32,000 bases of DNA from Pyrodictium delaneyi (GTDB lineage Archaea; Thermoproteota; Thermoprotei_A; Sulfolobales; Pyrodictiaceae): positions 150,001 through 182,000 of the forward strand of contig NZ_CP013011.1 in NCBI RefSeq assembly GCF_001412615.1. Direction: 5' to 3'. Shown here one piece after another: positions 2,793 to 31,009 of this stretch. The translations under genes and the position numbers were made by a program. How positions within the stretch are numbered: position 1 is the first letter of the stretch; each line of letters opens with the position of its first letter. The notes beneath the pieces are model-generated. The model did no database searches. It was not told the DNA's origin and was given only the letters and a program-made list of their open reading frames with translations.

Positions 2793-2954
2793 TTACAACA
2801 ATACAATGCTCATGTGCTAATAAGATGGATTAATGCAGCAAGGCAATATATAACTAACAAAATAGAAGCTGTCATTGCGTAGAGGTTGACTGCAATATAT
2901 CTAATAACGAGATACTGCTAGTTCTTACCTTAGAATAAGCCACGTAGTTTAGTA

Positions 2955-5477
2955 ATGAAGGGTGTAGCTAGGTTGAACACAGCGCGTGCATCCTTCCTTG
3001 CACTCGCATTTGCTCTTGTAGCACTCTTATCCATAGCGTCAATCAGCTACACTCTCTATAAGAATGTAGAGGTTCTATCTATACGTGTTACCAATATCGA
3101 GGAAGCAAACAAGTACCTCAATAACAGCATGGGAGAAGTATTTTGGAAGCTCGAAGAAATGACGACACATATTAAGAAGATAGACGAGAAGCTCGCAGAA
3201 CTAGAGAATAATATATACAATGTGAATGAAGATATGCGAGCCTCAATAGAAGAAGTAAAGAACAGCTTAGAAGCAGCATTGGCTGGTATAAGCAAACAAG
3301 TATACAGACTCGCTGAAACCATAACGGCTATGAGAAACCAGGTAGAGGTACTCCAAGAGAAAGTAATCGAGCTAGAGAATTCTGATAGAGTGTCCTCTGA
3401 AAGGATTAACAACATATATCAAAAGCTCTCAGAACTAGAGAGACAGATCACCGACCTTGCAAAAAGACTTGACAACCTAGAACAAGAGGTAGCAAGACTG
3501 GAGGAACAGGCTGGCGAAAATGCCGGAAAAATCACGGACCTCGAAAACCAGTTATCAGTTATCCAGTCTCTATTGTCCAGCCTCGAGCAGGCAGTTGCGA
3601 CACTCCAAAACGTGGCCAAAGACCTGGTAGAGCGCGTAGAGGCCCTCGAGTCCGCTAACGCTACTATAACCGGTGGTGGATCCACCACTACAGCTGTCGC
3701 TAACGAGACTACAACGAAGATGTTTAAGTGGCTTATACTAGTCTACATGGCTGCTGACAACAATCTAGAACACTACGCGATAAAGGATATCAACGAGATG
3801 GAGGAAGTAGGCTCGACCAGCGACGTGGCAGTCGTAGTACTCGTAGACAGGGCTAGGGGCTTTGACGACAGTAATGGAGGTTGGACAGGCACCCGTGTAT
3901 ACCTAGTTACAAGGGATAACGACCCGGATACTATAGGGTCGCGGCTACTTTTCGACCTGGGCGAACAGAGTACTAACGACCCGCGCTTATTACGCTGGTT
4001 CGTAGAAAACATGACTGCTATGTTTCCAGCTGAACACATCTTGCTTATTCTCTGGAATCATGGTGCCGGTATACTAGGCGGGTTCGCGGTAGACATGGAT
4101 TCTAGCCTTGGCAACAAGACTATGGACGTTGTTGAGATTGCTAATGCACTCCGTGGCCTCGACATAGACATTATAGGGTTTGATGCATGTCTCATGGGAG
4201 GCTATGAGGTGGCCTACTACCTCCAGTCGGTTGGCAAGGTGATGGTAGCCTCGGCTGACACTGAGCCGGTAGAGGGTTGGCCCTACAAGGATATACTGGG
4301 GTACATAGCGGCGAACCCTGATGCAGACGTAGCCGAGGTAGCTGCAAGAATAGTGCAGCTCTACGGCGAGAGTCTGACTGAATACAATATGCCGGCCACA
4401 CTCATAGCGCTAAACCTAACATCTCTACAGAGCGTGAACGAGGCTATAGCAGCCCTTTCCTACCACACCTATACGCCGGAGGACGTCTGGGCTCTAGCCC
4501 GCGCCATGGATGCAGCAGTGATGTACCCGCTCTCCGACCAGTACATGCTATTCCTAATGGGTGTAGCACAATACGGCTACATAGACCTCTACAACGCCCT
4601 CGCTATAGCAGAGCAACTGGCAACCCAGTATACAAGAGGCGTAATAGAGCAGCTAATGGGAGTGTTAGAGAACGCTGTGATAGCCAGCTACGTTGGTACG
4701 GAGTCGCCGGAGGTGCTCGGGCTCTCAGCTATAGGCCGTGAGTCGCTCTATTCAATGACAGCAGAACTGTATAACAAGACGCTGTGGGAGGCCCTCGCGA
4801 CTCCATGGAGCAGTCTAGTAGACAAGGTCGATACAATACTCCTGCAAGACCATGAGCCGCCGCGCGCCTCTGCGAACGTCGTCGAGACCCCTGAAGGAAT
4901 GGAAGTGAATGTTAAAGTGGAGTCGCAGGATGTCTCGAACTTGTATCTAGAGATACGGGATAGTAGAGACAATGCTACACTCAGTATAGTGTTGCTCGCG
5001 CCTAGTACCGGTATAGAGATTGGAGACGAGTATATACCGGTGTGGTTGAACGGCTCAGAGTCGAGCTATGTGTGGAGTGGCGCTGTGTACCAGCTTGTAT
5101 TTAGTGGGACCGTGTATCCCTCGACGGTGGTGATTGACACGGCTACGGGGCTAGGCATAGTACCTGGTATATACCGGGGCGGTCCGCTAGACTATGCAGT
5201 CCCGGCGGTCATGTTCTTCAACTTGTCCACGGGAGAACCGCTCTACGTGGTAGATGCGGAAAACGCGCTACTGGTAGAGCTGACTGAGACCTCTGAGTTC
5301 CTTCCGCTGCTATTGACGCCTATGGGCTGGAGTCATACGAGCGGGTTCCTCCCGGTAGAAGGCCTCCGGCTAGAGCAGGTAGCCCCAAGCGACCTGGGCG
5401 CGGGGCTAGATGTCTACCTCGTTGCGGTAGACCTCGCGGGCAACTTCGCCGAGGAACTATTGTACAGCACAACGTAG
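2955..5477 (+). CDS. membrane-anchored coiled-coil stalk fused to a clostripain-family (peptidase C11) cysteine peptidase, with a C-terminal beta-rich region
   Basis: 840 aa. TM segment SFLALAFALVALLSIASISYTLY. About 200 aa of heptad-like E/L/N/K-rich sequence (LAELENNIYNV, VIELENSD, LSELERQITDL, LDNLEQEVARLEEQ, ITDLENQLSVIQSLLSSLEQAVATLQNV). Thr-rich linker GGGSTTTAVANETTTK. C11 hallmarks: LVYMAADNNLE, catalytic-type His in LILWNHGAG (codon 4059-4061) and Cys in IGFDACLMGG (codon 4188-4190), then VASADTEPVEGWPY. Confidence 0.8.
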   Translation: MKGVARLNTARASFLALAFALVALLSIASISYTLYKNVEVLSIRVTNIEEANKYLNNSMGEVFWKLEEMTTHIKKIDEKLAELENNIYNVNEDMRASIEEVKNSLEAALAGISKQVYRLAETITAMRNQVEVLQEKVIELENSDRVSSERINNIYQKLSELERQITDLAKRLDNLEQEVARLEEQAGENAGKITDLENQLSVIQSLLSSLEQAVATLQNVAKDLVERVEALESANATITGGGSTTTAVANETTTKMFKWLILVYMAADNNLEHYAIKDINEMEEVGSTSDVAVVVLVDRARGFDDSNGGWTGTRVYLVTRDNDPDTIGSRLLFDLGEQSTNDPRLLRWFVENMTAMFPAEHILLILWNHGAGILGGFAVDMDSSLGNKTMDVVEIANALRGLDIDIIGFDACLMGGYEVAYYLQSVGKVMVASADTEPVEGWPYKDILGYIAANPDADVAEVAARIVQLYGESLTEYNMPATLIALNLTSLQSVNEAIAALSYHTYTPEDVWALARAMDAAVMYPLSDQYMLFLMGVAQYGYIDLYNALAIAEQLATQYTRGVIEQLMGVLENAVIASYVGTESPEVLGLSAIGRESLYSMTAELYNKTLWEALATPWSSLVDKVDTILLQDHEPPRASANVVETPEGMEVNVKVESQDVSNLYLEIRDSRDNATLSIVLLAPSTGIEIGDEYIPVWLNGSESSYVWSGAVYQLVFSGTVYPSTVVIDTATGLGIVPGIYRGGPLDYAVPAVMFFNLSTGEPLYVVDAENALLVELTETSEFLPLLLTPMGWSHTSGFLPVEGLRLEQVAPSDLGAGLDVYLVAVDLAGNFAEELLYSTT

Positions 5478-6308: not shown

Positions 6309-6830
6309 ATGAACCCTCTGTTGACCGTCCTGGTTCTCATTCTCGCCCTAGCCCAGACGCCAGCAGTCTCGGACGAGCCTGCTACGCCAGTGCCCGGCGA
6401 CTACGCTGTATACCAAGTCGAGACGAGCACTGGGCTAAGAATGCGCGTGAGAGTAGACATCCTCGGCTCTGATGAGCAGAGCATCCTAGTGGAGACCAGG
6501 GTGCTTGAGGCTCAAGGCCTGCATGACCCCCTAGCTAGACTGATTGTAGGAGGGCTAGAAGGTAGATACACTATACCACGCGATAATAAAGCAAACCTGG
6601 CTAGGACGCTAATGCTGGGCTCAGGGGCGGGACTACTCTACGTAGAGCCAACTAGCCTGCCCGACGGAGGAGTCATGAGGCTCACCCTCAACATGATGGG
6701 GGCGGAGCTAGTAGTCGAGGCCTCGTGGAGCCCCGAAAACGGGTGGCTACGCAGCCTAACAGCGAGCATCAGTGGCCTCTACCGGCTAGTAGTCAAGCTC
6801 GTGGAGTCTAGCTTCATGCAGGCCTCGTAG
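6309..6830 (+). CDS. hypothetical secreted protein
   Basis: 173 aa with signal-peptide-like MNPLLTVLVLILALAQTPAVS. By eye it shares motifs with the secreted protein at 24910..25512 (see findings). No known family recognised. Confidence 0.5.
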   Translation: MNPLLTVLVLILALAQTPAVSDEPATPVPGDYAVYQVETSTGLRMRVRVDILGSDEQSILVETRVLEAQGLHDPLARLIVGGLEGRYTIPRDNKANLARTLMLGSGAGLLYVEPTSLPDGGVMRLTLNMMGAELVVEASWSPENGWLRSLTASISGLYRLVVKLVESSFMQAS

Positions 6831-7993: not shown

Positions 7994-8072
7994 TGGTGCG
8001 GCGGCCGGGATTTGAACCCGGGATCACCGGCTTGGGAGGCCGGCGTCCTAGTCCAGGCTAGACGACCGCCGC
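7994..8072 (-). tRNA. tRNA-Gly (anticodon CCC), genomically encoded 3' CCA, no intron
   Basis: The reverse complement reads GCGGCGGTCGTCTAGCCTGGACTAGGACGCCGGCCTCCCAAGCCGGTGATCCCGGGTTCAAATCCCGGCCGCCGCACCA. It has a 7-bp all-G:C acceptor stem, anticodon stem CCGGC/GCCGG with loop CTCCCAA, T arm CCGGG-TTCAAAT-CCCGG, discriminator A and CCA. Folded by hand. Confidence 0.9.
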
Positions 8073-8137
8073 GCCCTGCTGGGCCCGCAGTGTTTGGCCC
8101 GGCCGCTCCATTGGTTTCTCTCGTCGCTGGCTCCGGG

Positions 8138-8145
8138 TTTTATAG
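8138..8145. promoter_or_regulatory. TATA-like box TTTTATAG (CTATAAAA on the other strand) between tRNA-Gly and thpR; possibly bidirectional
   Basis: This is the only A/T-rich element in the GC-rich 91-bp spacer. It begins 26 nt upstream of the GTG at 8164, giving a leaderless or near-leaderless thpR mRNA. It also lies about 66-73 nt upstream of the tRNA 5' end on the other strand, which would imply a roughly 40-nt tRNA leader. Confidence 0.35.
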
Positions 8146-8163
8146 GGTTTCCCTGGGCCCCTG

Positions 8164-8763
8164 GTGGCTCCTGGGTGCGGGTCTGGCTTGAGTGTCGAGC
8201 GTATACGCGCCTTCATAGCGGTCGATATTGAGGATCCACGGGTGGTTTCGCGGCTGGTGCAGATACGTGACGCGTTTGTGGCTACGGGTGCTCCTATGAA
8301 GCCTGTTGAGGACCAGAACCTGCATATCACGCTCCGGTTCCTTGGGAATATACCGTTGAGCCTCGTGGACGAGATTGAGCGTGTGATTGCCGCGTCTACT
8401 CCCCGCCGCGTGGTGATAAGGCTTCGCGGGGTGGGCGCGTTCCCGAGCCCAGCGCGGCCCCGCGTGATATGGGTGGGCGTGTCTGATGGCGCTGAGGAGC
8501 TCGAGCGCCTCTATAGGGAGATCGAGAGGGGGCTACGGCGGCTAGGGTTCCGGCCGGAGCGCGAGCAGTTCGTGCCCCATGTGACGCTTGCACGGCTCAA
8601 GGGGTCGCGGAACCTTGACCGTGTGGTGAAGCTGCTGCGGGAGATGGAGGACGTGGAGGTTGGTGAGATAGTGCTGGAGAGTGTCAGGCTCAAGCAGAGC
8701 ATATTGACGCCGAGGGGTCCGATATACCGGACACTGCGCGAGGTGAAGGCCTCTGAGTCCTAG
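8164..8763 (+). CDS. thpR: RNA 2',3'-cyclic phosphodiesterase / 2'-5' RNA ligase (2H phosphoesterase, ThpR/LigT family)
   Basis: 199 aa with both HxT/Sx motifs of the 2H superfamily: NLHITLRFLG and FVPHVTLARL. The family-typical N-terminus is RAFIAVDI. The start is either GTG 8164 or the in-frame TTG 8188. Confidence 0.85.
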   Translation: MAPGCGSGLSVERIRAFIAVDIEDPRVVSRLVQIRDAFVATGAPMKPVEDQNLHITLRFLGNIPLSLVDEIERVIAASTPRRVVIRLRGVGAFPSPARPRVIWVGVSDGAEELERLYREIERGLRRLGFRPEREQFVPHVTLARLKGSRNLDRVVKLLREMEDVEVGEIVLESVRLKQSILTPRGPIYRTLREVKASES

Positions 8764-9041
8764 GCCTCCCTTTCCCCGTCCTTGCTGCTCTTGTAGCGCT
8801 GCCAGATGGTGCCGCCTTCCCCGTCCTCGATGGCTATGACCCGGTGTAGTGGTATAACTGTGCCGTCTTCTAGCACTAGGTGGCTCCGGGTCACCCTGGC
8901 TATGCGCTCCCGGGGTATCCTCTTGACCCCGGTTGCTGTACCACGCTCGGCTATCACGATGTAGCCTGTGGATGATGTGTGGAAAAACCTTGCCACAGCC
9001 TCGTGTATCTCTCCACGTCGTCCAGGCAACAGTGTGTACAC
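8760..9041 (-). CDS. MJ1316/DUF504-like small protein (RNA cyclic-group end recognition domain)
   Basis: 93 aa. YIVIAERGTATGVKRIPRERIARVTRSHLVLEDGTVIPLHRVIAIEDGEGGTIWQR matches my recollection of the DUF504 consensus (..y.dRg...g.k.ip...i......fl.l.dg..IP.HRI..I....g..iW.R). It lies 27 nt downstream of, and on the same strand as, the flavin-reductase-like gene. Confidence 0.6.
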   Translation of the reverse strand: MYTLLPGRRGEIHEAVARFFHTSSTGYIVIAERGTATGVKRIPRERIARVTRSHLVLEDGTVIPLHRVIAIEDGEGGTIWQRYKSSKDGEREA

Positions 9042-9068
9042 CCTTCCGCGCGGCCTGCCGGGGCTGCT

Positions 9069-9677
9069 CTACACGTTGAGGTCGCTTCTAGCTCTTGGTG
9101 TCCTCTTCGGGGTGTATATGCCGCTGTTGGTGGTGAAGGCGCGGCCGGTGCTGTGGAGGAGTATCCGGGCCTTGCGTAGCTCCCAGCCGTAACGGGGATT
9201 GTAGAGCTCCGCGTCAGCGTAGGCTGCTGCCACATCGGCCACTATTAGGTGGACGTCATCTGCTAGGTCGCTGAGAACCCTGTAGACACGGGCCTCGACA
9301 ACGCCCACTGGCCGGGGCTTGACTAGCCTAGGGGCCCCCGTGACCGTGTCGCGGGCGACCTCGGCGCCGAGGAGCCTCAGCTTGTCGACCTCCCTGCCGC
9401 TGGTCGTGCCGGCAGCGTAGACGAAGTCTACCTCGTCCACAGTGAACACGTTGACGGTGAATACGCCAGACTCTATTATCAGCTCCGGGGTGTAGGCCTC
9501 CCTGTCGAGGGCGGCGACTATCCGTGGCGGCTCCTCGCTGAAGGGCATCACCCAGGACGCTGACATGAAGTTTACCCGGCCCCGGGCCTCGGCTACGAGC
9601 ACGTAGGCTGGCCGGGGTGCTAGGACACGTGGCCACCGCTCACCGGCGTCCACGTAGCCTTCGGGGACTCCTGCCAC
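9069..9677 (-). CDS. flavin reductase-like FMN-binding domain protein
   Basis: 202 aa. PRPAYVLVAEARGRVNFMSASWVMPFSEEPPRIVAALDREAYTPELIIESGVFTVNV is the typical core of the flavin_reduct split-barrel domain. GTG start. Confidence 0.75.
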   Translation of the reverse strand: MAGVPEGYVDAGERWPRVLAPRPAYVLVAEARGRVNFMSASWVMPFSEEPPRIVAALDREAYTPELIIESGVFTVNVFTVDEVDFVYAAGTTSGREVDKLRLLGAEVARDTVTGAPRLVKPRPVGVVEARVYRVLSDLADDVHLIVADVAAAYADAELYNPRYGWELRKARILLHSTGRAFTTNSGIYTPKRTPRARSDLNV

Positions 9678-9868
9678 GGCGCAGACACCGAGTGTGTTCC
9701 TAGATTCGGCGCCCTATACTAGCTCCTACACGGGTTGCCCAGTCGTCTGTGGCGTGTGTCGGCTGGGTAGAGTGTCCGGGACGTACGCTATAATTGGGGG
9801 TTCACGGTGGTAGTGGCCCCTGGGGGAAACCACTCGGCCTAGAGCGAGGACGCGAGGTGTAAACACGT

Positions 9869-11323
9869 ATGAGCGCGAGGATACCCTTGAAGAGGGTTAG
9901 CGACTATGAGTGGATGATACCTAAGGGCGCTAAGCCCTGCATGAGGGTCCCATCGATAATCTTCGCCGATGACTTCCTGCTCGAGAAAATGAAGGGCGAC
10001 CTCACGCTAGTACAGGCTGCTAACGTAGCCTGCCTCCAGGGTATACAGAAGTACAGCATTGTGATGCCCGACGGACACCAGGGCTACGGATTCCCGATCG
10101 GCGGCGTAGCAGCCATGGCTATAGACGAAGACGGTGTGATAAGCCCCGGCGGTGTCGGTTACGATATCAACTGTGGTGTACGCGTCATACGTACCAACCT
10201 CGACATAAAGGATGTGAAGCCTAAGCTACGCGAGCTCATAGAGGAGCTATTCCGCAACATACCAAGCGGCCTCGGCAGCACTGGCAAGATACGCCTCAGT
10301 GTACAAGAGCTAGACCGTGTACTAAACGAGGGTGTCGAGTGGGCGGTACAGAAGGGCTACGGCTGGGCCGACGACCCGGAGCACATCGAGGAGCGGGGTA
10401 GCTGGAGCCTAGCAGACGCTAGCAAGGTGAGCCAGCGCGCTAAGAGGCGTGGCGCTGAACAGCTAGGCACCCTGGGCAGCGGTAACCACTTCCTAGAGGT
10501 ACAGGTAGTCGACAAGATATACGACCCAGAGATAGCCAAGGCGATGGGTATAACCCATGAAGGCCAGATAATGGTCATGGTGCATACCGGCAGCCGTGGC
10601 CTAGGCCACCAGGTCGCAAGCGACTACCTCATGATAATGGAGCGTGCCATGAGGAAGTATGGTATAAGGCCGCCAGACCGCGAGCTAGCCAGCGTGCCCT
10701 ACAGCACCCGCGAGGCTCAGGACTACCTCCGCGCAATGGCAGCAGCGGCCAACTTTGCCTGGACCAACAGGCAGCTCATAACCTACTGGACCCGCGAGAG
10801 CTTCCAGCGCGTATTCCACCGCGACCCAGACCAGCTCGACATGAAGATAGTCTACGACGTAGCCCACAATATAGCCAAGATAGAGGAGCACGACGTAGAC
10901 GGCAAGAGGATGAAGCTCATAGTACACCGCAAGGGCGCCACTAGGGCCTTCCCACCAGGCCACCCAGAGATACCCAAGGACTACCAGGCGATAGGCCAGC
11001 CCGTGCTCATACCCGGCAGCATGGGTACTGCGAGCTACATACTGGTAGGTGTCCCCACTGGCGCCCGTGCCTGGTACACAGCGCCCCACGGCGCAGGCCG
11101 CTGGATGAGCCGCGCAGCGGCCAAGAGGAGCAGGAGCTACCACGAGGTCATAAGGGAGCTAGAGCAGAAGGGTATACTGATACGCGCTAGCAGCCGTGCC
11201 ACAGTCGTAGAGGAGATGCCACAGGCCTACAAGGACGTAGACCGTGTAGCCCTCGTAGCCCACAAGGTAGGCATAGCCAAGATGGTCGTAAGGCTACGCC
11301 CCATAGCCGTGACAAAGGGCTAA
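9869..11323 (+). CDS. rtcB: RNA-splicing ligase RtcB (3'-phosphate/5'-hydroxyl RNA ligase), intein-free
   Basis: 484 aa with the RtcB signatures PDGHQGYGFPIGG, GGVGYDINCGVR, GSGNHFLEVQ, HTGSRGLGHQ, DVAHNIA, PGSMG and APHGAGR (the guanylylated-His motif). Confidence 0.95.
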   Translation: MSARIPLKRVSDYEWMIPKGAKPCMRVPSIIFADDFLLEKMKGDLTLVQAANVACLQGIQKYSIVMPDGHQGYGFPIGGVAAMAIDEDGVISPGGVGYDINCGVRVIRTNLDIKDVKPKLRELIEELFRNIPSGLGSTGKIRLSVQELDRVLNEGVEWAVQKGYGWADDPEHIEERGSWSLADASKVSQRAKRRGAEQLGTLGSGNHFLEVQVVDKIYDPEIAKAMGITHEGQIMVMVHTGSRGLGHQVASDYLMIMERAMRKYGIRPPDRELASVPYSTREAQDYLRAMAAAANFAWTNRQLITYWTRESFQRVFHRDPDQLDMKIVYDVAHNIAKIEEHDVDGKRMKLIVHRKGATRAFPPGHPEIPKDYQAIGQPVLIPGSMGTASYILVGVPTGARAWYTAPHGAGRWMSRAAAKRSRSYHEVIRELEQKGILIRASSRATVVEEMPQAYKDVDRVALVAHKVGIAKMVVRLRPIAVTKG

Positions 11324-11361
11324 CCTCGTGCCCAAGCCTTTGTCTTCATCAAAATGTTTTT
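11311..11361 (+). terminator. hairpin spanning the rtcB stop codon followed by a T5 tract (putative archaeal terminator)
   Basis: GACAAAGG (11311-11318) pairs with CCTTTGTC (11337-11344) across an 18-nt loop that contains the TAA stop. TTTTT lies at 11357-11361. Oligo-T is the usual archaeal termination signal. Confidence 0.35.
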
Positions 11362-11564
11362 ACGCGTGGCATCCAAGCTGTCCACCTTCTCCCCATGTCC
11401 CTAGGTTATCCCGGCTACGACTCTCTCAGCTACAAGCCTGCGAGGCCCCCGGGCCAGAGTTGTTGCGTGACGTATGCTACTTCTGGTGTCTCTGCCAGCA
11501 AGGGAACCCCTATCAGTCGGTAGACACCTAGGTAGAAGCCTCTCGGGGAGGAGGCTGGAGAGGA

Positions 11565-12071
11565 ATGAGCGGTGAGGGCCCCTTCGAGGACATCGAGAAG
11601 GGTCTACGCGAAGTGCTAGCCCAGCTAAAGTGCCCCGGCTTCGCTCATGCGCCCCATACAGCGGACATAATCATAGTCGCCCGTGGCCGTAGTCTTGAGG
11701 AGGCGTTCGAGCAAGCGGCGCGCGGCGTCTACGAGGTTATAACCGATACGAGTAAGGTCGAGCCCCGCGAGGAACGGGTAATAGAGACTAGCGGTGTCGA
11801 CCTCTACCAGCTCCTCTACCGGTGGATAGAGGACCTCCTCTACTACACTGATAGTGAGGGCCTCGTGTTCTCAAAGTTCAAGGTGGAGCGTATAGAGCGG
11901 ATTGGCGAGGGCGAGGAGGCCGAGTACCGTCTAAAGGGCCGAGCCTGGGGCGAGCCCTTCAACGAGGAGAAGCACCCGCACCGTACCATAGTTAAGGCTA
12001 TGACCTATGCTATGATGGAGATTGTAAAGGAGAATGGCTGCTGGAGAGTACAGTTCGTTGTCGACATATAG
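11565..12071 (+). CDS. archease (RtcB activator/chaperone)
   Basis: 168 aa. It has the N-terminal HTADIIIVARGRSLEEAFEQAARGVYEV and the C-terminal VKAMTYAMMEIVKENGCWRVQFVVDI typical of archease. A GGAGG-rich stretch lies directly upstream. Confidence 0.9.
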   Translation: MSGEGPFEDIEKGLREVLAQLKCPGFAHAPHTADIIIVARGRSLEEAFEQAARGVYEVITDTSKVEPREERVIETSGVDLYQLLYRWIEDLLYYTDSEGLVFSKFKVERIERIGEGEEAEYRLKGRAWGEPFNEEKHPHRTIVKAMTYAMMEIVKENGCWRVQFVVDI

Positions 12072-12602: not shown

Positions 12603-14651
12603 TTAGTCCTCGTTCCTCGCGCCGGGTATGTGCTTGTTTAACCAGTCAAGTATGAGCTGTAGCCTCTTCACCCGGTGCCTGGGCTTACCGCTACGGGAGA
12701 GATCGTGGTTCTCGCCCGGGAATATCGCTAGCTTTGTTTCGACGCCACGGAGCTTCAGCGCAGTGTAGAGCTGTAGTGCCTGGTCGAGCCAGCAACGATA
12801 GTCCTCGTTAGAGTGGATTATCAGTGTAGGTGTCTCTATGCGGTCGGCGTAGCGGAGTGGGCTCTTCTCCCAGCAGAGGTCGCTCCTCCTCCACGGGGTG
12901 CAGCAGAGCTGGTCCTCGACAAAGTACCAGCCGATGTCCGTGGTGCCGTACATGCTTATCCAGTTAGATATACCCCTCATCGTCACGGCTGCGCGGAAGA
13001 AGCTCGTGTGTCCTATCACCCAGTTGGTCATGAAGCCGCCGTAGCTCCCGCCCATCACGGCTGCGCGGCTCTTGGGGAGACCGAGCTGCTTCACAACGTA
13101 GTCTACAGCCTCCATGAGGTCCATGTAGTCGCGCTCGCCGTAGCGGCAGCGTATATCGGCGAAGTCCTCGCTATAGCCGTCGCTGCCTCGGGGGTTAACG
13201 TATACCACCGTGTAGCCAGCGTTGGATAACACGTGGAACTCGTGCATGAACCCGTAGCCCCACATAGTCTTGGGGCCGCCGTGGATATAGAGTACCCAGC
13301 CGCGCTGCTCTACCCCCTCCGGCGGTGGGAGCACCCAGCCCTCCACAGTGGCGCCGTCGCTAGCTCTGAAGCTAAACCTCCTTGGCTGGGCTAGCTTGTA
13401 GCGCCTCTTCCAGGCCTCGGTATGCCGTGTGAGCCTCCGGGCCTCCATGCCCCGGTAGAGGTACAGCTCCTTGGGATCCACGGGAGTCATTAGAGTATAG
13501 GCTATTATGGAGCCGTCGCGACTGGCTGAGAACTCGTCGACAACAGCCTCGCCAGGGTCTAGTACGGGCTCCGGCTCCATGCCGGGCTGGACACGGTATA
13601 GAATAACACGCCCAGAGTCACTCACGAGGAAGTATATGCCGCGTATGGTCCACTGTAGCTTCTTGAGGCAGCTACGGAACCTGACATCACTGTTTACTGT
13701 GTTCACGGCGTTACGGTCGAGGCTACAAGTGAGGCACTCGAGCCCGCCAGTCTCAGGGTTTAGCAGCATTATCTTCTGGTGGCTAGAGAAGCCCCTCTCG
13801 CCCCGGTGTCCTAGGTAAGCTAGCAGTTTACTGTCGGGGCTCCAGGCTAACTCTCCGTAGCCCCGTAGACCTTGAGCGACTACATGTGCCTCTCCGTTCT
13901 CCACGTCGTAGACGTAGACGTCGAGCAGGTATGGTCGCAGCATGTCGGCTGCGACGCTTATGGCTATTTTCTTACCGTCAGGGCTCCAGGCTACGTCGCT
14001 GACCTGGAGCCAGTTAAGGCCAAGCTCTATCCTCTCCATTATGCCGGAGTCCACATCTATTATGAAGGGCTCTATACGGGTTTTGTAGACGAAGCCCTTA
14101 CCGTTAAACCAGACCGGCAGCGTCTCTATCTCCTTGACGTCCTCGTCCGGCCTCCCCATGGGCGATGCTGCGGCCAATCTTCTGCTATCTGGACTCCAGG
14201 AGAGCGAGACTATGCCTTCGACCCTGGCGATTAGTTGGCTAGCACCAGGTGCATCAAGGCTAGCTAGCCGTAGCTCTATACCCGGCAGCTTATTCCCTCT
14301 CCTATCCCTCTGCTCAACCTTCCTAGCGAAGACGTAGCGCCGGCCGTCAGGGCTCGGTACGGGACACGAGTCCCGAGGCCCGCTCTGGAGCACAATTTGC
14401 TCGCCGCTATCGACCTTCACGGCCAGTATGCTCGACTCATAGCTGTCTGTGGCGAGACTCACACGGGCAGCTGTGTAGAGAATGTAGCGGCCATCTGGAG
14501 TCACGGCAGGATTCGAGACTAGAACAAGGCCATCAAGACTATCTGGGCCAAGCTTTTCAGCACCAGGCATGCCGGTTCCTCTCCACAGCCCAGGAATGCT
14601 CCTAGTATATGTGGTGAAAAGAATCGTGCGGCTCCGCATAGTAGACCTCAC
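12603..14651 (-). CDS. S9-family serine peptidase (prolyl oligopeptidase / acylaminoacyl-peptidase type)
   Basis: 682 aa. The N-terminal half has repeated WSPD(G/S) beta-propeller motifs (WSPDSRRLAA, WSPDGKKIAI, WSPDSKLLAY). The C-terminal alpha/beta hydrolase has the nucleophile elbow GGSYGG, an Asp in HSNEDYRC and a His in FPGENHDL. An alternative start at Met28 (ATG 14570-14568, MPGAEKLG...) is plausible. Confidence 0.85.
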   Translation of the reverse strand: MRSTMRSRTILFTTYTRSIPGLWRGTGMPGAEKLGPDSLDGLVLVSNPAVTPDGRYILYTAARVSLATDSYESSILAVKVDSGEQIVLQSGPRDSCPVPSPDGRRYVFARKVEQRDRRGNKLPGIELRLASLDAPGASQLIARVEGIVSLSWSPDSRRLAAASPMGRPDEDVKEIETLPVWFNGKGFVYKTRIEPFIIDVDSGIMERIELGLNWLQVSDVAWSPDGKKIAISVAADMLRPYLLDVYVYDVENGEAHVVAQGLRGYGELAWSPDSKLLAYLGHRGERGFSSHQKIMLLNPETGGLECLTCSLDRNAVNTVNSDVRFRSCLKKLQWTIRGIYFLVSDSGRVILYRVQPGMEPEPVLDPGEAVVDEFSASRDGSIIAYTLMTPVDPKELYLYRGMEARRLTRHTEAWKRRYKLAQPRRFSFRASDGATVEGWVLPPPEGVEQRGWVLYIHGGPKTMWGYGFMHEFHVLSNAGYTVVYVNPRGSDGYSEDFADIRCRYGERDYMDLMEAVDYVVKQLGLPKSRAAVMGGSYGGFMTNWVIGHTSFFRAAVTMRGISNWISMYGTTDIGWYFVEDQLCCTPWRRSDLCWEKSPLRYADRIETPTLIIHSNEDYRCWLDQALQLYTALKLRGVETKLAIFPGENHDLSRSGKPRHRVKRLQLILDWLNKHIPGARNED

Positions 14652-21885: not shown

Positions 21886-22011
21886 GGCGGATCCCGGCTT
21901 GGGGGCGCTGCGGGGCCTCGCGGACCCCACAGCCTCCCCCAACGCGGCCGGCTTAACTTCCGGGTTCGACACGAGTCCGGGTGTTGCCCGACCGCTATGG
22001 CCGGGTCCAGG
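21886..22011 (-). rRNA. 5S ribosomal RNA, stand-alone gene (ends +/- about 5 nt)
   Basis: The minus strand reads ...CTGGACCCGGCCATAGCGGTCGGGCAACACCCGGACTCGTGTCGAACCCGGAAGTTAAGCCGGCCGCGTTGGGGGAGGCTGTGGGGTCCGCGAGGCCCCGCAGCGCCCCCAAGCCGGGATCCG... The block GGGCAACACCCGGACUC...UCGAACCCGGAAGUUAAGCC is the conserved crenarchaeal 5S core as I recall it from Sulfolobus. The termini pair as helix I (GGACCCGG with CCGGG-A-TCC). A pyrimidine-rich tract follows the 3' end. Confidence 0.9.
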
Positions 22012-22074: not shown

Positions 22075-22986
22075 GTGATTGTTATGGCTGGTGGCGTGCT
22101 AGACGAGAGCGCTAGACGGCTCGCTGAGAAGTTCTGCAGGGAGGAGATAACGGTATACCATGTCTACAGCTGGCTCGCCGAGAAGGAAAAGGATCCCGTG
22201 CGGCGGGAGCATCTCCGGAGGCTCGCAGAGCAAGAGTTGAGGCACTATAAGTTCTGGAGCCGGCTATTGGGCAGCGGCTGCCGGCCCTACGGAGTGACTA
22301 TGAAGAGGATAATGTTGCTCTACCGGCTCCTGGGCCCAGTGTTCACGCTCCGGCTCCTCGAGCGCGGCGAAGAGGTGACTATAGAGCAGTATCAGAGGTT
22401 CCTAAACAGGATTCACGATGAGCAGCTACGCCGAGAGCTTGAGCAGATAATACGCGAAGAAGAGGAGCATGAAGAAACGCTGCTTAGCGGTATCGAGGAT
22501 ACGCGTGTAAAGTACATGGGGTTCATAGCCCTGGGGCTCGCAGACGCTATCGTGGAGATAACTGGTGTCCATGCAGGCTTCCTCGGTGCTACATCGAGCA
22601 CTATTCTCGCCGGTGTAGCAGGGCTAGTGGTGGGCTTCTCCGCGGCCCTCTCCATGGCTGGCGCAGCCTACCTACAGGCTAAGCATGGCCGCGAGACACG
22701 CCCAGTCGTAAGCGCGGGGGTAACCGGCGTATCATACATAATCTCTGTGATACTCCTTGCTCTGCCATACTTCCTCCTCCACACTATGTTCGAAGCGTTC
22801 ACAGTATCACTAGTCATAGCCACGGTCATAATAGCGGGCTTCACCTACTTCAGCGTCGTCGTACAGAATAAGCCATTCCTAAAAGAATTCCTCGAGAGTA
22901 CGGGGCTAATGCTGGGCACAGCGCTCGGCAGCTACGCCTTCGGGAAACTCCTTGGAAGCCTGCTAGGCGTAGAAGCAATCCTATAG
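22075..22986 (+). CDS. ferritin/rubrerythrin-like domain fused to a VIT1/CCC1-family iron (Fe2+/Mn2+) transporter
   Basis: 303 aa. The N-terminal four-helix-type part has ExxH pairs (EQELRHYKFW, EEEEHEETL). The C-terminal membrane part GLADAIVEITGVHAGFLGA...AGVAGLVVGFSAALSMAGAAYLQAK fits the VIT1 signature (G.nDGlv...GlA.l.aGa.SMa.GeY). The start is GTG 22075 or ATG 22084. Confidence 0.8.
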   Translation: MIVMAGGVLDESARRLAEKFCREEITVYHVYSWLAEKEKDPVRREHLRRLAEQELRHYKFWSRLLGSGCRPYGVTMKRIMLLYRLLGPVFTLRLLERGEEVTIEQYQRFLNRIHDEQLRRELEQIIREEEEHEETLLSGIEDTRVKYMGFIALGLADAIVEITGVHAGFLGATSSTILAGVAGLVVGFSAALSMAGAAYLQAKHGRETRPVVSAGVTGVSYIISVILLALPYFLLHTMFEAFTVSLVIATVIIAGFTYFSVVVQNKPFLKEFLESTGLMLGTALGSYAFGKLLGSLLGVEAIL

Positions 22987-26441: not shown

Positions 26442-29400
26442 ATGCATCTTCGGGATAGCCGACGCGTTACGGCACTAACACTACTTGTACTGGTGCTGCT
26501 ATCAGTCCTCATCCCCGCTCTACCGGCCCATGCACAATCATCAACAGACCTAGCCGATCAACTCCGTAGACTGCTCGAGCAGCTCTACAACAACACGATC
26601 AACTATAGTGAGGCAGTCCAGCTCTACCAGGATATAGCCTCATGCTCGCAGCCTCCGCTCTCGGACAAAGCTGCTAGGACAGCAAAGGTTCTAGAGGAGG
26701 CGGCCCAGGGTCGAGTCACGACCCAGCTAGTCAAGGAGACATTGTTAGACTACGTGTACTCGGCGGGAGAGAACATAGACGCCTTCGCGGGCTGTAGCTC
26801 CAGTCTAGTTTACCGGAGCATCCTGCTAGCATTCTCTGTCCCAACACCTGCTGGGCTCCTCCCCGCCTCCCTGCCCACAGACACCATGAGCCAGACTGCG
26901 ATGCAGCTAGCCTACGAGATAGTGTACAGACTCACCGGGAGCAGCGAGCTAGCGACAAGGGCAGCAAGTATAGCCCGTGCGGACCCCTACGCTGGCCTAC
27001 TCCTGGTCGGGCTCGCTGGCCGCCCAGACCAGGACTTCTGGACAACCATAGCCACGAATACCACTAGCCGCAGCGGCCTCTGCCTCGTATACTCGCTTGC
27101 CTCGACAGACGTCATACCCTCAGACACAGCGGTTGCAGCCCTCGCTGCCGTGGCAGGGGCGGCCTACGCCTATGGCCCCGGAGAAGTATTGTCGAAAGCA
27201 GCCCATATGCTCGAGACGGGCGACCTCATATGCTATGCAGCCACCGTGAACTTGTTAGACGCAGCGTACCGCGGCTACGTTGACAGACTCCTCCCCCTCT
27301 ACACGCTCCCCGAGGGCCTAGAGCCACCCGAGGCCCCAGTAGTAGGGGGCCTCGACGCAGCCCGACTAGCCGGCGCACTTGCTGCAAGGGAAGGGCATGA
27401 GCCTAGCATCCTACTCGCAGCCCTGGCCAGGATACAGGGCAGGCTTGTGGCTAGCCCCTCCGGGCTAGCAGCGGTCATGCGGGCCCATAATGCCTCTATT
27501 CCGTCGTTGCCCAGCGGGAGTAGCTACTGTACAGTTTTCGAGGCTGCTGTGAGGAGCATCCTCGACCCCGACGTAACAGAGACCCAAGCAGCGTGGAGCG
27601 TCGCTGCTGCGGCGGCGAGCCTCTGCTACGCCGATACCGGGTCCCCCGAGCCGCTGATAGCCCTACTCCTCTTCCAGCCCTTTACGGCCCCCGACCCGTG
27701 GCTGTTAGCCGAGGGCATCAAGCGCCAGGCTAGCCAGAACGGTGACCAGGCCTTCGCCGGCTATGCCTCGAAGGTATCCCAGCTCGCGTGGGAGGGGAGG
27801 CTGGAGGAAGCAGCAAGTGTAGAGCCCGAGGGGCCTCCTGAGACCCGTCTAGCATACATACTGTTCTCGGCTGCTGTAGCAGGGCTACAGGAAGGATTCA
27901 ATCCCCTTGTGGTCAACGTGGACAATTCTACTGCTTTAGCCTTGCTCGAGGCGGCTGGTTTCGAGTCGCCCCGGGACGCAGTCCTAGTAGTGCTGGACCC
28001 GGCCCGAGTGATGGAAGAGATTGTGAAGAGTAATACTACGTCACTGGAGCAGTTAGGAGCCCTCGCCCGAGCGGCCTCGATACGGCCCCTCCACGGGGGC
28101 TACGTTCTCGACTATGCCGACGTACGCGTGGTGTCCTGGACTATAGTCCACATGTACTCCTGGCTCCGCGATGGCTACGAGTTACCGCCTCCAGGCCAGC
28201 CTCCCGGCGGGGATACGCTACTATCCTGGGCTCTGGGCTACCTGACTACCATGCAGCCGCCGGCCAAGCCGGCTGGGGACGCCGGAGAGGGTCAGCATGT
28301 GGCCATAACGAACACAACAACTGTGGAGGGAGAGCCTAGCACGACTAGCAATACTACAGCAAATAGTGAGGCTAGCGCGCCCGTTAACGCCACGGATATA
28401 GGGGTGGCATCGCCCGAGATAGAGCAGCTCGCCCGACAGCTAGAAAGCCTAGCTGACATGCTCCGCACGGTGCCTGGTAACGATACAGCTAGGCAGGCTC
28501 AGGCTGAAGCAATAGCGGAGCTGCTAGACCAGATAGCCCAGAGCATACGCGAAGGAGACTACGCCTCCGCGGTAGCCGCTAGCCAGCAGCTACAACAGAT
28601 GCTAGAGGAGACAACAGGTAGTGATGTACTGCAGCTACTCCAGCTAGCCCAGCTTCTCCGAAACGATACAAGCTCCTGGGATGTAGCCCAAATTCTGGCC
28701 AAGGCGGCTAGCCTCAGGCTAGAGAACAGCACAGTGTCGATAGACCTAGGGGAGATGAGCCAGCTAACCGACCTCCTCGCCACGACTGGGCAGCAGAGTC
28801 TTCTAAACGAGCTAGAGAGAGCTGTAACAAGTGGAGAGGCCGAGAAAGTCGCAGACATAATAGAGACGATAGCTAGTAGAGGCGGCGAAGAACAGCTCCG
28901 TGAGGCCATCAGGATTCTCGCCGAGGAGAGCGGTGCCGGCGAAGAAGTGGCAAGGATCTTAGAGATAAGAGGGCTTGGAGACTTGGCAGCCCAGCTCTAC
29001 CAGGTCCTTGGAGGCCAGACGCCCCAAGCGGTAGCAGGTACAGCCCAGGAGGCCGTAGAGCTGCCAGTCTCCGGCAGCTATACTGCTGGCTCACAGGCAT
29101 CGAATGCTACGGTGTACCAGTCTCCAAGCCTCCCCAAGCTCCCGCCAGCGCCTAGTCTCCCTAGCAACCTCCCAGGCTTAGCTGGGCTCGGCTTCCTAGC
29201 AGCACCACTACTCCTTGCAGGTCTAGCACTACTAGCGGCTACCCGGTACCGGGAGATAATGGCTCTCGTTGCCCGCGTAAGGCTCGCAAGGCTAGAACGC
29301 CGTCTAGCATCCTCAGTGGCTGGAGACGCTAGGCCCCGGGAGGCACGAAGAGTAATAGTGGAGGCGTTTAGCCAGATCCTCCGCCTCTATGAGGCCGTCT

Positions 29401-29642
29401 ATGCGCCCCGAGCGGTTAGCGAGACGCACCGCGAGTATGCTGGGAAGCTGCCCGTGGAGGAGAAGACGCGTTACATCCCGGCGGCGATGGTCTACGAGAA
29501 GGCAAAGTTCAGTAACGAGCCGGTTAGCGGTCGCGACGTGGAGACTCTGCAGAGGATTCTATCCGAGATAAGACGCGTCATAGGAGCGCTGGATAATGCG
29601 AAGAGTGGTATGAAGAGGAAGCTGCTAGGTGGCAGGAAGTGA
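26442..29642 (+). CDS. large secreted glycoprotein-like protein with a C-terminal TM anchor and a cytoplasmic DUF4129-like tail
   Basis: 1066 aa. Signal peptide MHLRDSRRVTALTLLVLVLLSVLIPALPAHA|QSS. The Ala-rich helical ectodomain of about 900 aa carries many NxS/T sequons and a Thr/Asn linker (NTTTVEGEPSTTSNTTANSEASAPVNAT). A coiled-coil-like Q/L/E-rich stretch and a Pro-rich PSLPKLPPAPSLPSNLP segment follow. The TM is GLGFLAAPLLLAGLALLAAT followed by RYR. The tail EARRVIVEAFSQILRLYEAVYAPRAVSETHREYAGKLP...AAMVYEKAKFSNEPVS fits the DUF4129 pattern (..tp.E....l.....ye.arys..p). Confidence 0.8.
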   Translation: MHLRDSRRVTALTLLVLVLLSVLIPALPAHAQSSTDLADQLRRLLEQLYNNTINYSEAVQLYQDIASCSQPPLSDKAARTAKVLEEAAQGRVTTQLVKETLLDYVYSAGENIDAFAGCSSSLVYRSILLAFSVPTPAGLLPASLPTDTMSQTAMQLAYEIVYRLTGSSELATRAASIARADPYAGLLLVGLAGRPDQDFWTTIATNTTSRSGLCLVYSLASTDVIPSDTAVAALAAVAGAAYAYGPGEVLSKAAHMLETGDLICYAATVNLLDAAYRGYVDRLLPLYTLPEGLEPPEAPVVGGLDAARLAGALAAREGHEPSILLAALARIQGRLVASPSGLAAVMRAHNASIPSLPSGSSYCTVFEAAVRSILDPDVTETQAAWSVAAAAASLCYADTGSPEPLIALLLFQPFTAPDPWLLAEGIKRQASQNGDQAFAGYASKVSQLAWEGRLEEAASVEPEGPPETRLAYILFSAAVAGLQEGFNPLVVNVDNSTALALLEAAGFESPRDAVLVVLDPARVMEEIVKSNTTSLEQLGALARAASIRPLHGGYVLDYADVRVVSWTIVHMYSWLRDGYELPPPGQPPGGDTLLSWALGYLTTMQPPAKPAGDAGEGQHVAITNTTTVEGEPSTTSNTTANSEASAPVNATDIGVASPEIEQLARQLESLADMLRTVPGNDTARQAQAEAIAELLDQIAQSIREGDYASAVAASQQLQQMLEETTGSDVLQLLQLAQLLRNDTSSWDVAQILAKAASLRLENSTVSIDLGEMSQLTDLLATTGQQSLLNELERAVTSGEAEKVADIIETIASRGGEEQLREAIRILAEESGAGEEVARILEIRGLGDLAAQLYQVLGGQTPQAVAGTAQEAVELPVSGSYTAGSQASNATVYQSPSLPKLPPAPSLPSNLPGLAGLGFLAAPLLLAGLALLAATRYREIMALVARVRLARLERRLASSVAGDARPREARRVIVEAFSQILRLYEAVYAPRAVSETHREYAGKLPVEEKTRYIPAAMVYEKAKFSNEPVSGRDVETLQRILSEIRRVIGALDNAKSGMKRKLLGGRK

Positions 29643-31009
29643 TAGGTCTCAAAGGGTTTCTAGCAGGATTGTCACTAGTAGCTCTCGTAGCCGCTATACT
29701 ATCCGCTCCAAAGGTGGTCAAGCTAGGCTCTATGCCCGAGTTGCGAGCCGGCTCGCCGGGCGATGCAGGACCCCAAGGACACTCGCTACTAGCTAGACTC
29801 CTTGAGGACAGAGGCTACCAAGTCTCCTATGATGTCGAGCCGCCGCTAGACTGGCAAGGCTCTGTGGTCTACTTCATAGCAGGGCCTACAGATTGTAATG
29901 CTGAGGTAGTCAAGGAGGTAGCAGAGAATGCCAAAGCACTTGCAGCAATAGGACTGCGCGTAGGTATAATAGTGGCTGACGAGGGCGCGTGTGCCCAACA
30001 TCTACTAGGCATGCTAGGTGCACCTACCATAGGGCTTTCACCTGGGCCACAGAATGAGCCATGGCTAGCACTGTACCAGGATCAAGGCGTGATATTCGCA
30101 ATGTATACTGCATCCATAATCACGTATATCGCATCGACACCTAATGGTGGAGAATGGCAACAGACAGCTGTGACGCTGTATCCTCGTGGATTCCCGGCAA
30201 TACTTGAATGGAATAGTAGCTTAAGAGTAGTCTATATACCGGATAGCCACGTTTTCAATAACATGGTACTAGGGGCGGCTAATGAGACGGGGCTGGGTAA
30301 CGCGGAGCTAGCAGTAACGCTTGTCGAGAAGCTAGGCGGCAACAATGCTATCGTTCTTATGCCTTTAGGTTTCTATCAACTCGTAAACCCTAGCATCCCC
30401 CTCTTAGCCTACATACACCCTGGCATGCTTATTCTCCGGGCTGTAGAGAGGTTATCCGGCTTCGAGGCTATGGTAATCGAGTCAATGATGATGAATCCGC
30501 TTGCAGCAACAGTGCTGGTTATAGGAGTAATGTCTGTGCTCTACATGGCTTTTGCACAGATGACAGGTAAAGACTGGGTTGAGGAAAGGCCTCCACAGCA
30601 GCCCGAACCGTCCCGGGTACTCGGTGCCTCCCCCGTGCTTGAGAAGCTACAGAAAGGCGTAAAGCTTACACGGGAGGAGGCTCGTCAAGCGCTTGCAACT
30701 CTCTACGAAGTGGTTGACGAGGCTCTACGGCTACGGCTCGGTGCTGGGTTGAGAGAGGTGCTTGAGAACCCTGGGCTCCTCGAGAGCGTAACACGTGGAG
30801 CCGGGATAGACTATGAACGGGTTCTCGAGGGGCTCAAGGAGCTGTACCGGCTCTACGATGTTAAGATTAGAGCTAGACGGCTCTTTCCGCTCGTATTTTC
30901 CTGGAGGCGTAGGCTATACTACGTGCTTGAGCGTGTAGAGCCTCTACTCGAAACTATGGGCGTAGGGCTAGCGGAGGTAAGGAGTATTGAGTACAGCTTC
31001 ACCCGTTAG
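29639..31009 (+). CDS. two-anchor membrane protein, DUF4350-like extracellular domain plus cytoplasmic helical tail
   Basis: 456 aa. The GTG start overlaps the upstream stop (GTGA, 29639-29642). N-terminal [19 protein letters not shown]. The ecto part begins [18 protein letters not shown], like the DUF4350 opening (G.sal..lL...G..v). A second hydrophobic segment is [21 protein letters not shown], followed by a roughly 150-aa charged helical C-terminus. Confidence 0.6.

Follow-up and report, generated by a model that had tools for sequence, protein, structure and literature searches.

Pyrde_0172 of Pyrodictium delaneyi Su06 (ALL00222.1) was identified, via exact look-up, as the open reading frame (ORF) at 2955-5477 on the forward strand of a 32,000-nucleotide stretch of contig NZ_CP013011.1 (positions 150,001 to 182,000), which we refer to in its entirety as the window and whose numbering is used below. 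We lean, on balance, towards reading its product as a catalytically competent C11 endopeptidase which is held outside the cytoplasm on a stalk and which, in Pyrodictium, is anchored to the membrane by its N-terminus. Membership of the C11 family is already recorded in RefSeq, where the product is named 'clostripain-related cysteine peptidase' (WP_197272692.1, 834 aa, TTG start at 2973). What is new is the genus-restricted combination of a predicted type II anchor with a coiled-coil stalk, along with a mirror-image layout in related archaea. The parts of the gene relevant to this reading are the following.

2793..2954 (+): AT-rich upstream intergenic region of 162 bp (34% GC), where a promoter belonging to the gene itself is presumed to lie
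2955..5477 (+): complete ORF Pyrde_0172, 840 aa plus stop (ALL00222.1)
2955..2993 (+): residues 1-13, basic N-terminal tail (K2, R6, R11), predicted to be cytoplasmic by the positive-inside rule
2994..3059 (+): residues 14-35, hydrophobic helix (Kyte-Doolittle), interpreted as a signal anchor that stays uncleaved (type II)
3060..3659 (+): residues 36-235, stalk of heptad coiled coil, some 30 nm in length at full extension
3660..3722 (+): residues 236-256, flexible Thr-rich linker (38% Thr)
3723..4859 (+): residues 257-635, catalytic domain of the peptidase C11 family (clan CD), helical C-terminal subdomain included
4059..4061 (+): codon of the catalytic His369 (LWNHGAG)
4116..4118 (+): codon of Lys388, a speculative candidate for an autoprocessing site
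4182..4190 (+): codons of D410 (Asp of the S1 pocket), A411 and C412 (catalytic Cys) in FDAC
4860..5474 (+): residues 636-840, C-terminal domain of beta structure throughout, probably arranged as two beta-sandwiches and ending V-A-V-D-L-A-G-N

The initial annotation of this gene had proposed a complete C11 core, and the Pfam family PF03415 indeed covers residues 263-585 with positions 1-313 of its 359-position profile, at E=1.9e-44 and with a score of 153.1 bits where 25.8 would suffice. The His/Cys dyad named in that annotation also falls on the catalytic residues of known structures: the LWNHGAG around H369 is matched by LWSHGTG in 6mzo and by MANHGGG in clostripain 9cip, while the FDACLMG around C412 is matched by FDACYMS and FDACLMG in the same two proteins. 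Both residues, as well as D268, N269 and D410, are invariant in a 31-sequence alignment of homologs. An AlphaFold2 (AF2) model of residues 258-840, built from 31 trimmed homologs, attained a predicted local distance difference test score (pLDDT) of 79.3 and a predicted template-modelling (TM) score of 0.74, with most of the C11 core above a pLDDT of 90. Foldseek matched the head model to clostripain 9cip (E=1.1e-21) and to the Bacteroides/Parabacteroides C11 proteins 6n9j, 6mzo and 6nag (target-normalised TM-scores of 0.73-0.75), and the model contains the caspase-like alpha/beta/alpha fold with a C11-type C-terminal subdomain. By profile, dyad, fold and S1 Asp, Pyrde_0172 is a bona fide C11 member. 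As judged by its sequence, it is a member of the family and not a clostripain ortholog, the clostripain equivalog TIGR02806 scoring it at 52.8 bits against a cut-off of 550.

The protein is apparently a catalytically active protease. The Asp of F-D-A-C, situated in the S1 pocket, goes with Arg/Lys specificity in the C11 family, and Pyrde_0172 is probably an Arg/Lys-specific endopeptidase. The same association is made in the description of globupain, a C11 enzyme from an Archaeoglobales metagenome-assembled genome (MAG) (PMC10315481). Clan CD also includes transamidases and ligases, two of which, butelase and legumain, are weak fold matches of the head, and the activation loop, being atypically short, gives little indication of how the enzyme would be activated. 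The domain might, on these grounds, be non-hydrolytic in vivo, serving as a transpeptidase, a ligase or an inactive scaffold. This we find hardly credible, since the catalytic and S1 residues are all invariant, the nearest structures are those of hydrolytic C11 proteases and, to our knowledge, no transpeptidase has been described in family C11.

Beneath this presumably active head lies the stalk. The initial annotation had described roughly 200 residues of heptad coiled coil, and the periodicity of residues 36-235 agrees with that description. The region contains no Pro and four Gly; strong hydrophobics occupy 22 of 29 a positions and 26 of 28 d positions, as opposed to at most 4 of 28 at any other position. 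Its Fourier hydrophobic period is 3.52, with a power of 5.19 compared to 0.65+/-0.32 in 2000 composition-preserving shuffles (z=14), none of which (0/2000) reached the observed value. Heptad phases are 344 degrees in segment 98-140, 341 degrees in 145-183 and 348 degrees in 186-235, whereas segment 36-92 is offset by roughly one residue, a sign of a skip near residues 93-97. The core includes polar residues (N52 and D144 at a, N189 at d), and in-register R-h-x-x-h-E motifs start at R44, R171 and R227, the R44 motif being conserved among orthologs. Continuity of the heptad phase is our main argument for a single long rod as opposed to a folded-back bundle, and we infer a parallel homo-oligomeric assembly which, as an extended rod at 0.148 nm per residue, would reach up to ~30 nm. 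Matches of the stalk to coiled-coil families in Pfam and NCBIfam (DUF1664, DUF16, SlyX, SMC, Rad50, SlaB, and others) were below curated cut-offs and were treated as compositional. No tandem or internal DNA repeats were found beneath the stalk. The GC content of the stalk-coding stretch (3060-3659) is 43%, relative to 52% in the C11 part, 56% in the part encoding the C-terminal domain, and 52-63% in neighbouring genes; this could reflect either an E/K/N/I-rich composition or a separate origin of the stalk.

The N-terminal transmembrane helix which had been proposed to carry the stalk corresponds to residues 14-35, directly following K2, R6 and R11. Nowhere else in the protein does the Kyte-Doolittle mean over 19 residues exceed 1.6 (it peaks here at 2.43), and the 22 residues of the helix include neither Pro nor Gly; the h-region of a neighbouring secreted protein (6309-6830) has only 12. 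In a low-confidence full-length AF2 model, generated with three orthologs (pLDDT 39) and used solely for secondary structure, residues 4-92 form a single continuous helix. The anchor is predicted to remain uncleaved in an N-in/C-out, type II topology. The start of the gene is ambiguous, as ATG 2955 (GenBank, 840 aa) competes with TTG 2973 (834 aa), the latter being preceded by a GGGTG motif and used by RefSeq as well as by 93%-identical metagenomic copies. The choice alters only the length of the predicted cytoplasmic tail (13 versus 7 residues).

Between stalk and head, the sequon-bearing, Thr-rich linker of the initial annotation was located at residues 236-256, with N250-E-T inside it and N235-A-T adjoining it. 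N250-E-T is invariant in three orthologs, in which seven of ten N-X-S/T sequons are conserved overall. The catalytic C412 is the sole Cys of the protein. Conserved sequons and a lone catalytic Cys fit an exported glycoprotein.

Full-length counterparts of this protein appear limited to its own genus. In a word-indexed search of 5.8 billion proteins, full-length matches occurred in three clusters only, representing P. delaneyi, P. abyssi (69% identity) and a metagenomic Pyrodictium (66%), while all other matches started at approximately residue 258. Searching 1.84 billion cluster representatives with an HMMER profile retrieved 14,895 relatives, of which only the Pyrodictium cluster and one fragment were full-length, and a simple heptad and transmembrane scan of 347 collected proteins yielded no other case of an N-terminal transmembrane helix and coiled coil preceding C11. 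The rarity suspected at the outset is thus borne out by the exhaustive profile search, which confines the layout of N-terminal transmembrane helix, coiled coil and C11 to Pyrodictium. We likewise found no description in the literature of a stalked archaeal C11 protein, in either this layout or the mirror-image one discussed below. A contig scan with exact query peptides returned one Pyrodictium MAG only and is uninformative on distribution. Sequence comparison indicates that the lineage-specific part of Pyrde_0172 is the transmembrane segment and stalk only. Between P. delaneyi and two distant ortholog groups (P0002 and P0003), the stalk is 43-46% identical and the C11 domain 82-84%, and the hydrophobic a/d pattern is maintained in the ortholog stalks. 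A stalk which diverges in sequence while preserving its a/d pattern, next to a conserved C11 domain, is characteristic of a spacer in which selection acts on structure and length and not on sequence. Many of the top-scoring relatives (P0080, P0081, P0083, P0084, P0086, P0087, and P0092) carry two to three tandem C11 domains; P0081 and P0086 have a long extra C-terminal region, and P0084 has a C-terminal transmembrane helix with a Gln/Pro-rich tail.

Published proteomic data provide an indication of when the protein is made. In a tandem mass tag (TMT) experiment, Pyrde_0172 (listed as 'Uncharacterized protein', A0A0P0N192) belongs to a set of 64 proteins whose levels on ferrihydrite significantly exceed those on nitrate (PMC8105010, Table S1). 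Its normalised values are 14.9, 12.9, 19.8 and 9.0 on nitrate and 134, 140, 149 and 160 on ferrihydrite, a difference of ~10-fold; the table itself lists a log2 fold change of 4.95 with an adjusted P value (padj) of 1.35e-16 (PMC8105010, Table S1). As its product is detected and is higher on ferrihydrite than on nitrate, the gene can be taken as real, translated and regulated. The same up-regulated set contains dipeptide and branched-chain amino-acid ATP-binding cassette (ABC) binding proteins (Pyrde_0361, Pyrde_1292; PMC8105010). Pyrde_0172 is not discussed in that paper.

We propose that these parts operate as follows. The signal-anchor helix would tether Pyrde_0172 to the cytoplasmic membrane, N-in and C-out, and the parallel heptad rod of ~200 residues (up to ~30 nm), together with a putatively glycosylated Thr-rich hinge, would keep the head off the membrane, the hinge allowing it some freedom of movement. 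The head would be a conserved module of C11 and beta-sandwich, seen in unstalked C11 proteins too, to which Pyrodictium would have added anchor and stalk. Catalysis would fall to His369 and Cys412, and the S1 Asp410 predicts cleavage after Arg/Lys. The enzyme may have its place of action in the hot and reduced pseudo-periplasm, level with the S-layer or below it, cleaving envelope or captured polypeptides at a fixed height while staying cell-bound in a flowing vent, and peptide transporters co-induced with it could import the cleavage products. In this scheme the expression, restricted distribution, domain anatomy, fold, catalytic residues and heptad periodicity are what the data show, whereas the topology, the retention of the anchor, the extended homo-oligomeric stalk, the P1 specificity, the position with respect to the S-layer and the physiological role are what we infer; a tethered degradative or scavenging role is the one we favour.

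Several observations weigh against parts of this scheme. The tetrapeptide S-I-A|S at residues 26-29, inside the hydrophobic segment, is cleavable in principle. The low-confidence full-length AF2 monomer breaks the stalk helix at 93-97, 141-144 and 184-185 (pLDDT 50-73). Core residues of the stalk conflict as to its oligomeric state, Asn at a pointing to dimers while the R-h-x-x-h-E motifs and Asn at d point to trimers. The activation loop is short, and the position of K388 is non-basic in short-loop homologs. P. delaneyi is described as an autotroph in the title of Lin et al. 2016, and a role in nutrition alone is less convincing on that account. Finally, no measured width of the Pyrodictium pseudo-periplasm was found in the accessible literature. 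An oligomer assignment from core residues and PDB coiled-coil matches was dropped because the signals were contradictory.

The S-I-A|S motif invites an interpretation of the hydrophobic N-terminus as a Sec signal peptide which is cleaved off, such that the mature protein is released and its coiled coil docks onto an envelope stalk or the S-layer, in analogy to the STABLE protease bound non-covalently on tetrabrachion. The Staphylothermus precedent of a stalk-bound protease (PMC5744192) is consistent with such docking, as is the fast divergence of the stalk (43-46% identity), which would be expected of a surface adapting to a partner. However, the 22-residue h-region has no helix breaker and no polar c-region, the motif is not kept in orthologs, which read L-S-A-I, and heptad-compatible spacing continues directly from the helix into the stalk. 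The cleaved signals of the neighbouring gene and of the reverse-topology relatives also look different. We consider release improbable and retain the uncleaved anchor.

The modelled helix breaks suggest, in turn, that residues 36-235 could fold back as a compact antiparallel bundle, with helices of 57, 43, 39 and 50 residues, which would place the protease near the membrane. The top PDB sequence match of the stalk, 9rgy (E=1.8e-5), is a designed single-chain antiparallel three-helix coiled coil, and weak Pfam matches to bundle-type families (DUF1664, Baculo_PEP_C) occur, all below cut-offs. Hairpins, however, would have no need of the phase shared by segments 98-140, 145-183 and 186-235, from which the first segment departs by one residue; such a pattern is what a single uninterrupted coiled coil containing a skip should show, and the chance of three segments falling into one phase is roughly 2%. 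The modelled 'breaks', moreover, span only 2-5 residues, contain no Pro, and lie where the model has a pLDDT of 50-73. A bundle is, in our estimation, quite improbable.

C11 zymogens are activated by a cut behind a Lys or Arg in the loop past the catalytic His. In Pyrde_0172 this loop is short, with 44 residues from His to Cys, and K388 is the sole basic residue before the next helix, R384 being added in two orthologs. Autoprocessing of PmC11 and globupain occurs in the loop after the catalytic His (globupain K137/K144; PMC10315481); the globupain sites lie just after H132, whereas the Pyrodictium loop offers only K388, 19 residues past its His. At the corresponding sites, other short-loop homologs have Y, N or G. 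As the position is not conserved outside Pyrodictium, K388 was retained only as a speculative candidate for autoprocessing.

The main functional rival accepts the same anatomy and assigns to it a dedicated maturation or remodelling of envelope proteins in place of general peptide scavenging. Possible substrates would include S-layer subunits, surface multihaem cytochromes, and adhesion filaments for direct contact with Fe(III) oxide. The protein is ~10-fold more abundant on insoluble ferrihydrite, which is reduced via direct contact according to the authors (PMC8105010), and the host is described as autotrophic in the title cited above. A predicted narrow Arg/Lys specificity and moderate abundance would also suit a processing enzyme, and STABLE has likewise been proposed to process its own S-layer precursor (PMC5744192). 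On the other hand, the heterotroph P. abyssi retains the ortholog, and peptide and amino-acid ABC binding proteins are co-induced. A link to the cannulae is excluded: a role in cannula assembly was considered and rejected because P. delaneyi Su06 has no CanX homologs. Dedicated maturation seems to us rather unlikely, though deserving of attention, and scavenging by a tethered protease is still favoured.

The initial annotation of the C-terminal region requires revision. Some 350 further beta-rich residues had been described after the C11 core, an overstatement, given that in the AF2 model residues 413 to ~632 belong to the C11 fold (alpha/beta and helical subdomain) and that only 638-840, approximately 200 aa, are all-beta (pLDDT ~60-87). 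Nor is this tail an appendage of unknown kind, for it corresponds to a C-terminal domain common to a C11 subfamily. No Pfam family matched the domain, and its fold matches, to tandem FnIII-like sandwiches, are weak and unreliable. A hidden Markov model (HMM) of the domain alone gave only marginal results against the collected proteins (E 0.2-0.3), which were resolved by profile-profile comparison: hhalign aligned it with the post-C11 regions of eight proteins (P0115, P0109, P0107, P0093, P0006, P0007, P0008, and P0012), some of them from Chloroflexota, at 93.7% probability (E=1.9e-7, 192 columns), and the alignment takes in the terminal '...V-x-D-L-(A/S)-G-N...' strand. Full-length profile alignments extend to profile positions 754-761 in P0107, P0109 and P0115. 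Pyrde_0172 thus displays the subfamily signature of a ~200-aa beta domain directly after C11 which closes with a hydrophobic-x-D-x-(A/S)-G-N strand. Since the tail is homologous to those of other C11 proteins, the C11 and beta domains form a pre-existing module, and the tail is no orphan. A word-indexed search with the C-terminal domain only returned one fragment and missed known orthologs, so that an absence of homologs could not be concluded from it.

The fusion of a C11 protease to a membrane-anchored stalk is not a unique arrangement either, for at least nine clusters of Desulfurococcales type (P0085, P0089, P0090, P0091, P0150, P0234, P0235, P0236, and P0237) have the mirror-image layout, namely signal peptide, C11, short beta domain, heptad region, C-terminal transmembrane helix and basic tail. 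Genes of this kind were located as follows.

L002:3107-5368, L003:306-2534 and L004:6001-8043, also L005 and L006: reverse-layout C11 genes

Their heptad regions comprise ~84-215 residues with a period of 3.50-3.60. The sources are hyperthermophile or vent metagenomes, with archaeal contig neighbours and MAG labels including 'Desulfurococcales archaeon' and, for one cluster, 'Staphylothermus sp.' Both groups covalently join C11 to a heptad stalk and a single transmembrane anchor. Anchor and stalk are C-terminal in the reverse-layout proteins and N-terminal in Pyrde_0172, which consequently falls outside that group, and the reverse-layout stalks are richer in Gly and sequons than the Pyrodictium stalk. 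The post-C11 beta domains of the two groups are not homologous (hhalign probability 0.1%). In a neighbour-joining tree of C11 cores (100 bootstraps), the reverse group forms its own clade and the Pyrodictium clade receives 100%, with its sister unsupported (8-9%). Unrelated beta domains and the lack of a supported sister suggest that C11 and stalk were probably fused twice, independently. That a separate lineage fuses C11 to an anchored heptad stalk in the opposite order argues that stalked display is functional.

Comparison with characterised systems places Pyrde_0172 near several of them and within only one. It shares the fold and the His/Cys dyad with family C11 (clostripain, PmC11, thetapain/iotapain, and distapain; 9cip, 3uws/4yec, 6n9j, 6nag, and 6mzo), as well as the S1 Asp two residues before Cys, and like these enzymes it is predicted to be extracytoplasmic. 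The known members, however, have their signal peptide removed by cleavage and are either soluble or of lipoprotein type, whereas Pyrde_0172 has a predicted transmembrane anchor, a 200-aa stalk, a ~200-aa beta domain and a short loop. Globupain, a thermostable, Arg-specific, caseinolytic enzyme which needs reducing conditions (PMC10315481), resembles it in being an archaeal C11 protein from a hydrothermal vent and in its acidic pI (4.2 versus 4.3 in Pyrde_0172), and differs in its 481 aa, its 21-aa cleaved signal peptide and its want of a stalk.

The tetrabrachion of Staphylothermus marinus, to which the initial annotation had compared Pyrde_0172, is a long coiled-coil stalk anchored in the membrane which, in the envelope of this member of the Desulfurococcales, keeps a protease at a defined height (PMC5744192). 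The analogy of a stalk-held protease stands, and so does the observation that here stalk and protease are one polypeptide with a protease of another class, the C11 domain being fused. Beyond this the resemblance ends. In tetrabrachion, 11-residue repeats build up a right-handed coiled coil of four helices, which measures 70 nm and has a C-terminal anchor, and the partner STABLE is a separate, non-covalently bound subtilisin-like protease; the Pyrodictium protein has a heptad period (3.52) and not an undecad one (~3.67), a predicted N-terminal anchor, and a stalk of at most ~30 nm. None of the features which would define membership of the tetrabrachion/STABLE system (11-residue repeat, C-terminal anchor, separate subtilisin) was found in it.

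The SlaB-type stalk proteins of the Sulfolobales offer another comparison, with a coiled coil beside a transmembrane anchor which spans the pseudo-periplasm. SlaB has no enzyme domain and pairs with SlaA; its order of signal peptide, beta-sandwich domains, coiled coil and C-terminal transmembrane anchor is opposite to that of Pyrde_0172. The SlaB profile NF040788 scored 27.6 bits against a cut-off of 700, over residues 157-238 only, and looks compositional. A weak match in the PDB (8qox_B, E=9e-5) looks compositional too; the entry contains three chains of a 475-aa 'conserved membrane protein', which we take to be SlaB of S. acidocaldarius. On these profile scores and its domain order, Pyrde_0172 is not a SlaB family member.

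A broader proposition, which we put forward as speculation and think more apt to be wrong than right by a good measure, is that envelope proteases of the Desulfurococcales were mounted on stalks at least three separate times, and that the Pyrodictium C11 protein is part of the response to Fe(III) oxide. The three mountings would be non-covalent (STABLE/tetrabrachion), by C-terminal fusion (C11 proteins of the P0085 type) and by N-terminal fusion (Pyrodictium C11). If this were true, proteolysis at a defined height of the pseudo-periplasm would be a selected feature of these S-layer envelopes, and the stalked C11 protein of P. delaneyi would remodel the envelope, or cytochromes and adhesins, for direct mineral contact. 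Almost nothing is known of processes in the pseudo-periplasm of S-layer-enveloped Crenarchaeota. Pyrde_0172 and the mirror-image proteins suggest that mounting a protease on a rigid spacer is a recurrent design in these archaea. The former may offer a one-polypeptide system for asking how stalk length relates to envelope geometry, how a thiol protease functions at ~90-100 C, and what is cleaved, and, as expression is regulated by the electron acceptor, such hypotheses are testable in a cultivable organism. For specialists of the archaeal envelope the protein should be of moderate interest; it is otherwise a member of a well-known protease family.

With respect to its genomic setting, Pyrde_0172 follows a MatE transporter gene on the same strand and precedes a convergent HAD hydrolase gene, and it looks like a stand-alone transcription unit. 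The promoter and terminator scan relied on bacterial-type models and is uninformative for an archaeal host. The order MatE / C11 / HAD ... LigT ... RtcB is kept in the Pyrodictium species with the 66%-identical ortholog (locus L008), which argues that the gene is an old, vertically inherited resident of the genus and not a member of an operon or island. Two small orphan envelope-type proteins without Pfam match (724-1260 and 6309-6830) flank the locus, of which one has an N-terminal transmembrane helix and a sequon-rich tail (NTTNTTEANMT) and the other a classical signal peptide. On P. delaneyi-like metagenomic contigs the C11 gene is accompanied by both. In the more distant species (L008), no gene equivalent to the 6309-6830 orphan is called at the corresponding place.

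Further along the window are a cluster for RNA repair and ligation (7997-12071), another peptidase, and several other genes, listed here with strand where recorded.

7997-8072 (-): tRNA
8164-8763: LigT 2'-5' RNA ligase-like
9869-11323: RtcB
11565-12071: Archease
12603-14651 (-): S9 prolyl-oligopeptidase with PD40 propeller repeats, the other peptidase
21889-22008 (-): 5S rRNA gene
22075-22986 (+): rubrerythrin-VIT1 fusion protein
26442-29642: large ORF of 1066 aa, no Pfam match at 1e-5
29639-31009: large ORF of 456 aa, no Pfam match at 1e-5
30987-31940: MoxR-type AAA_3 ATPase gene

The stops and starts of the two large ORFs overlap and run into the MoxR-type gene, and the stretch 26442-31940 may constitute a MoxR-associated operon of unknown function.

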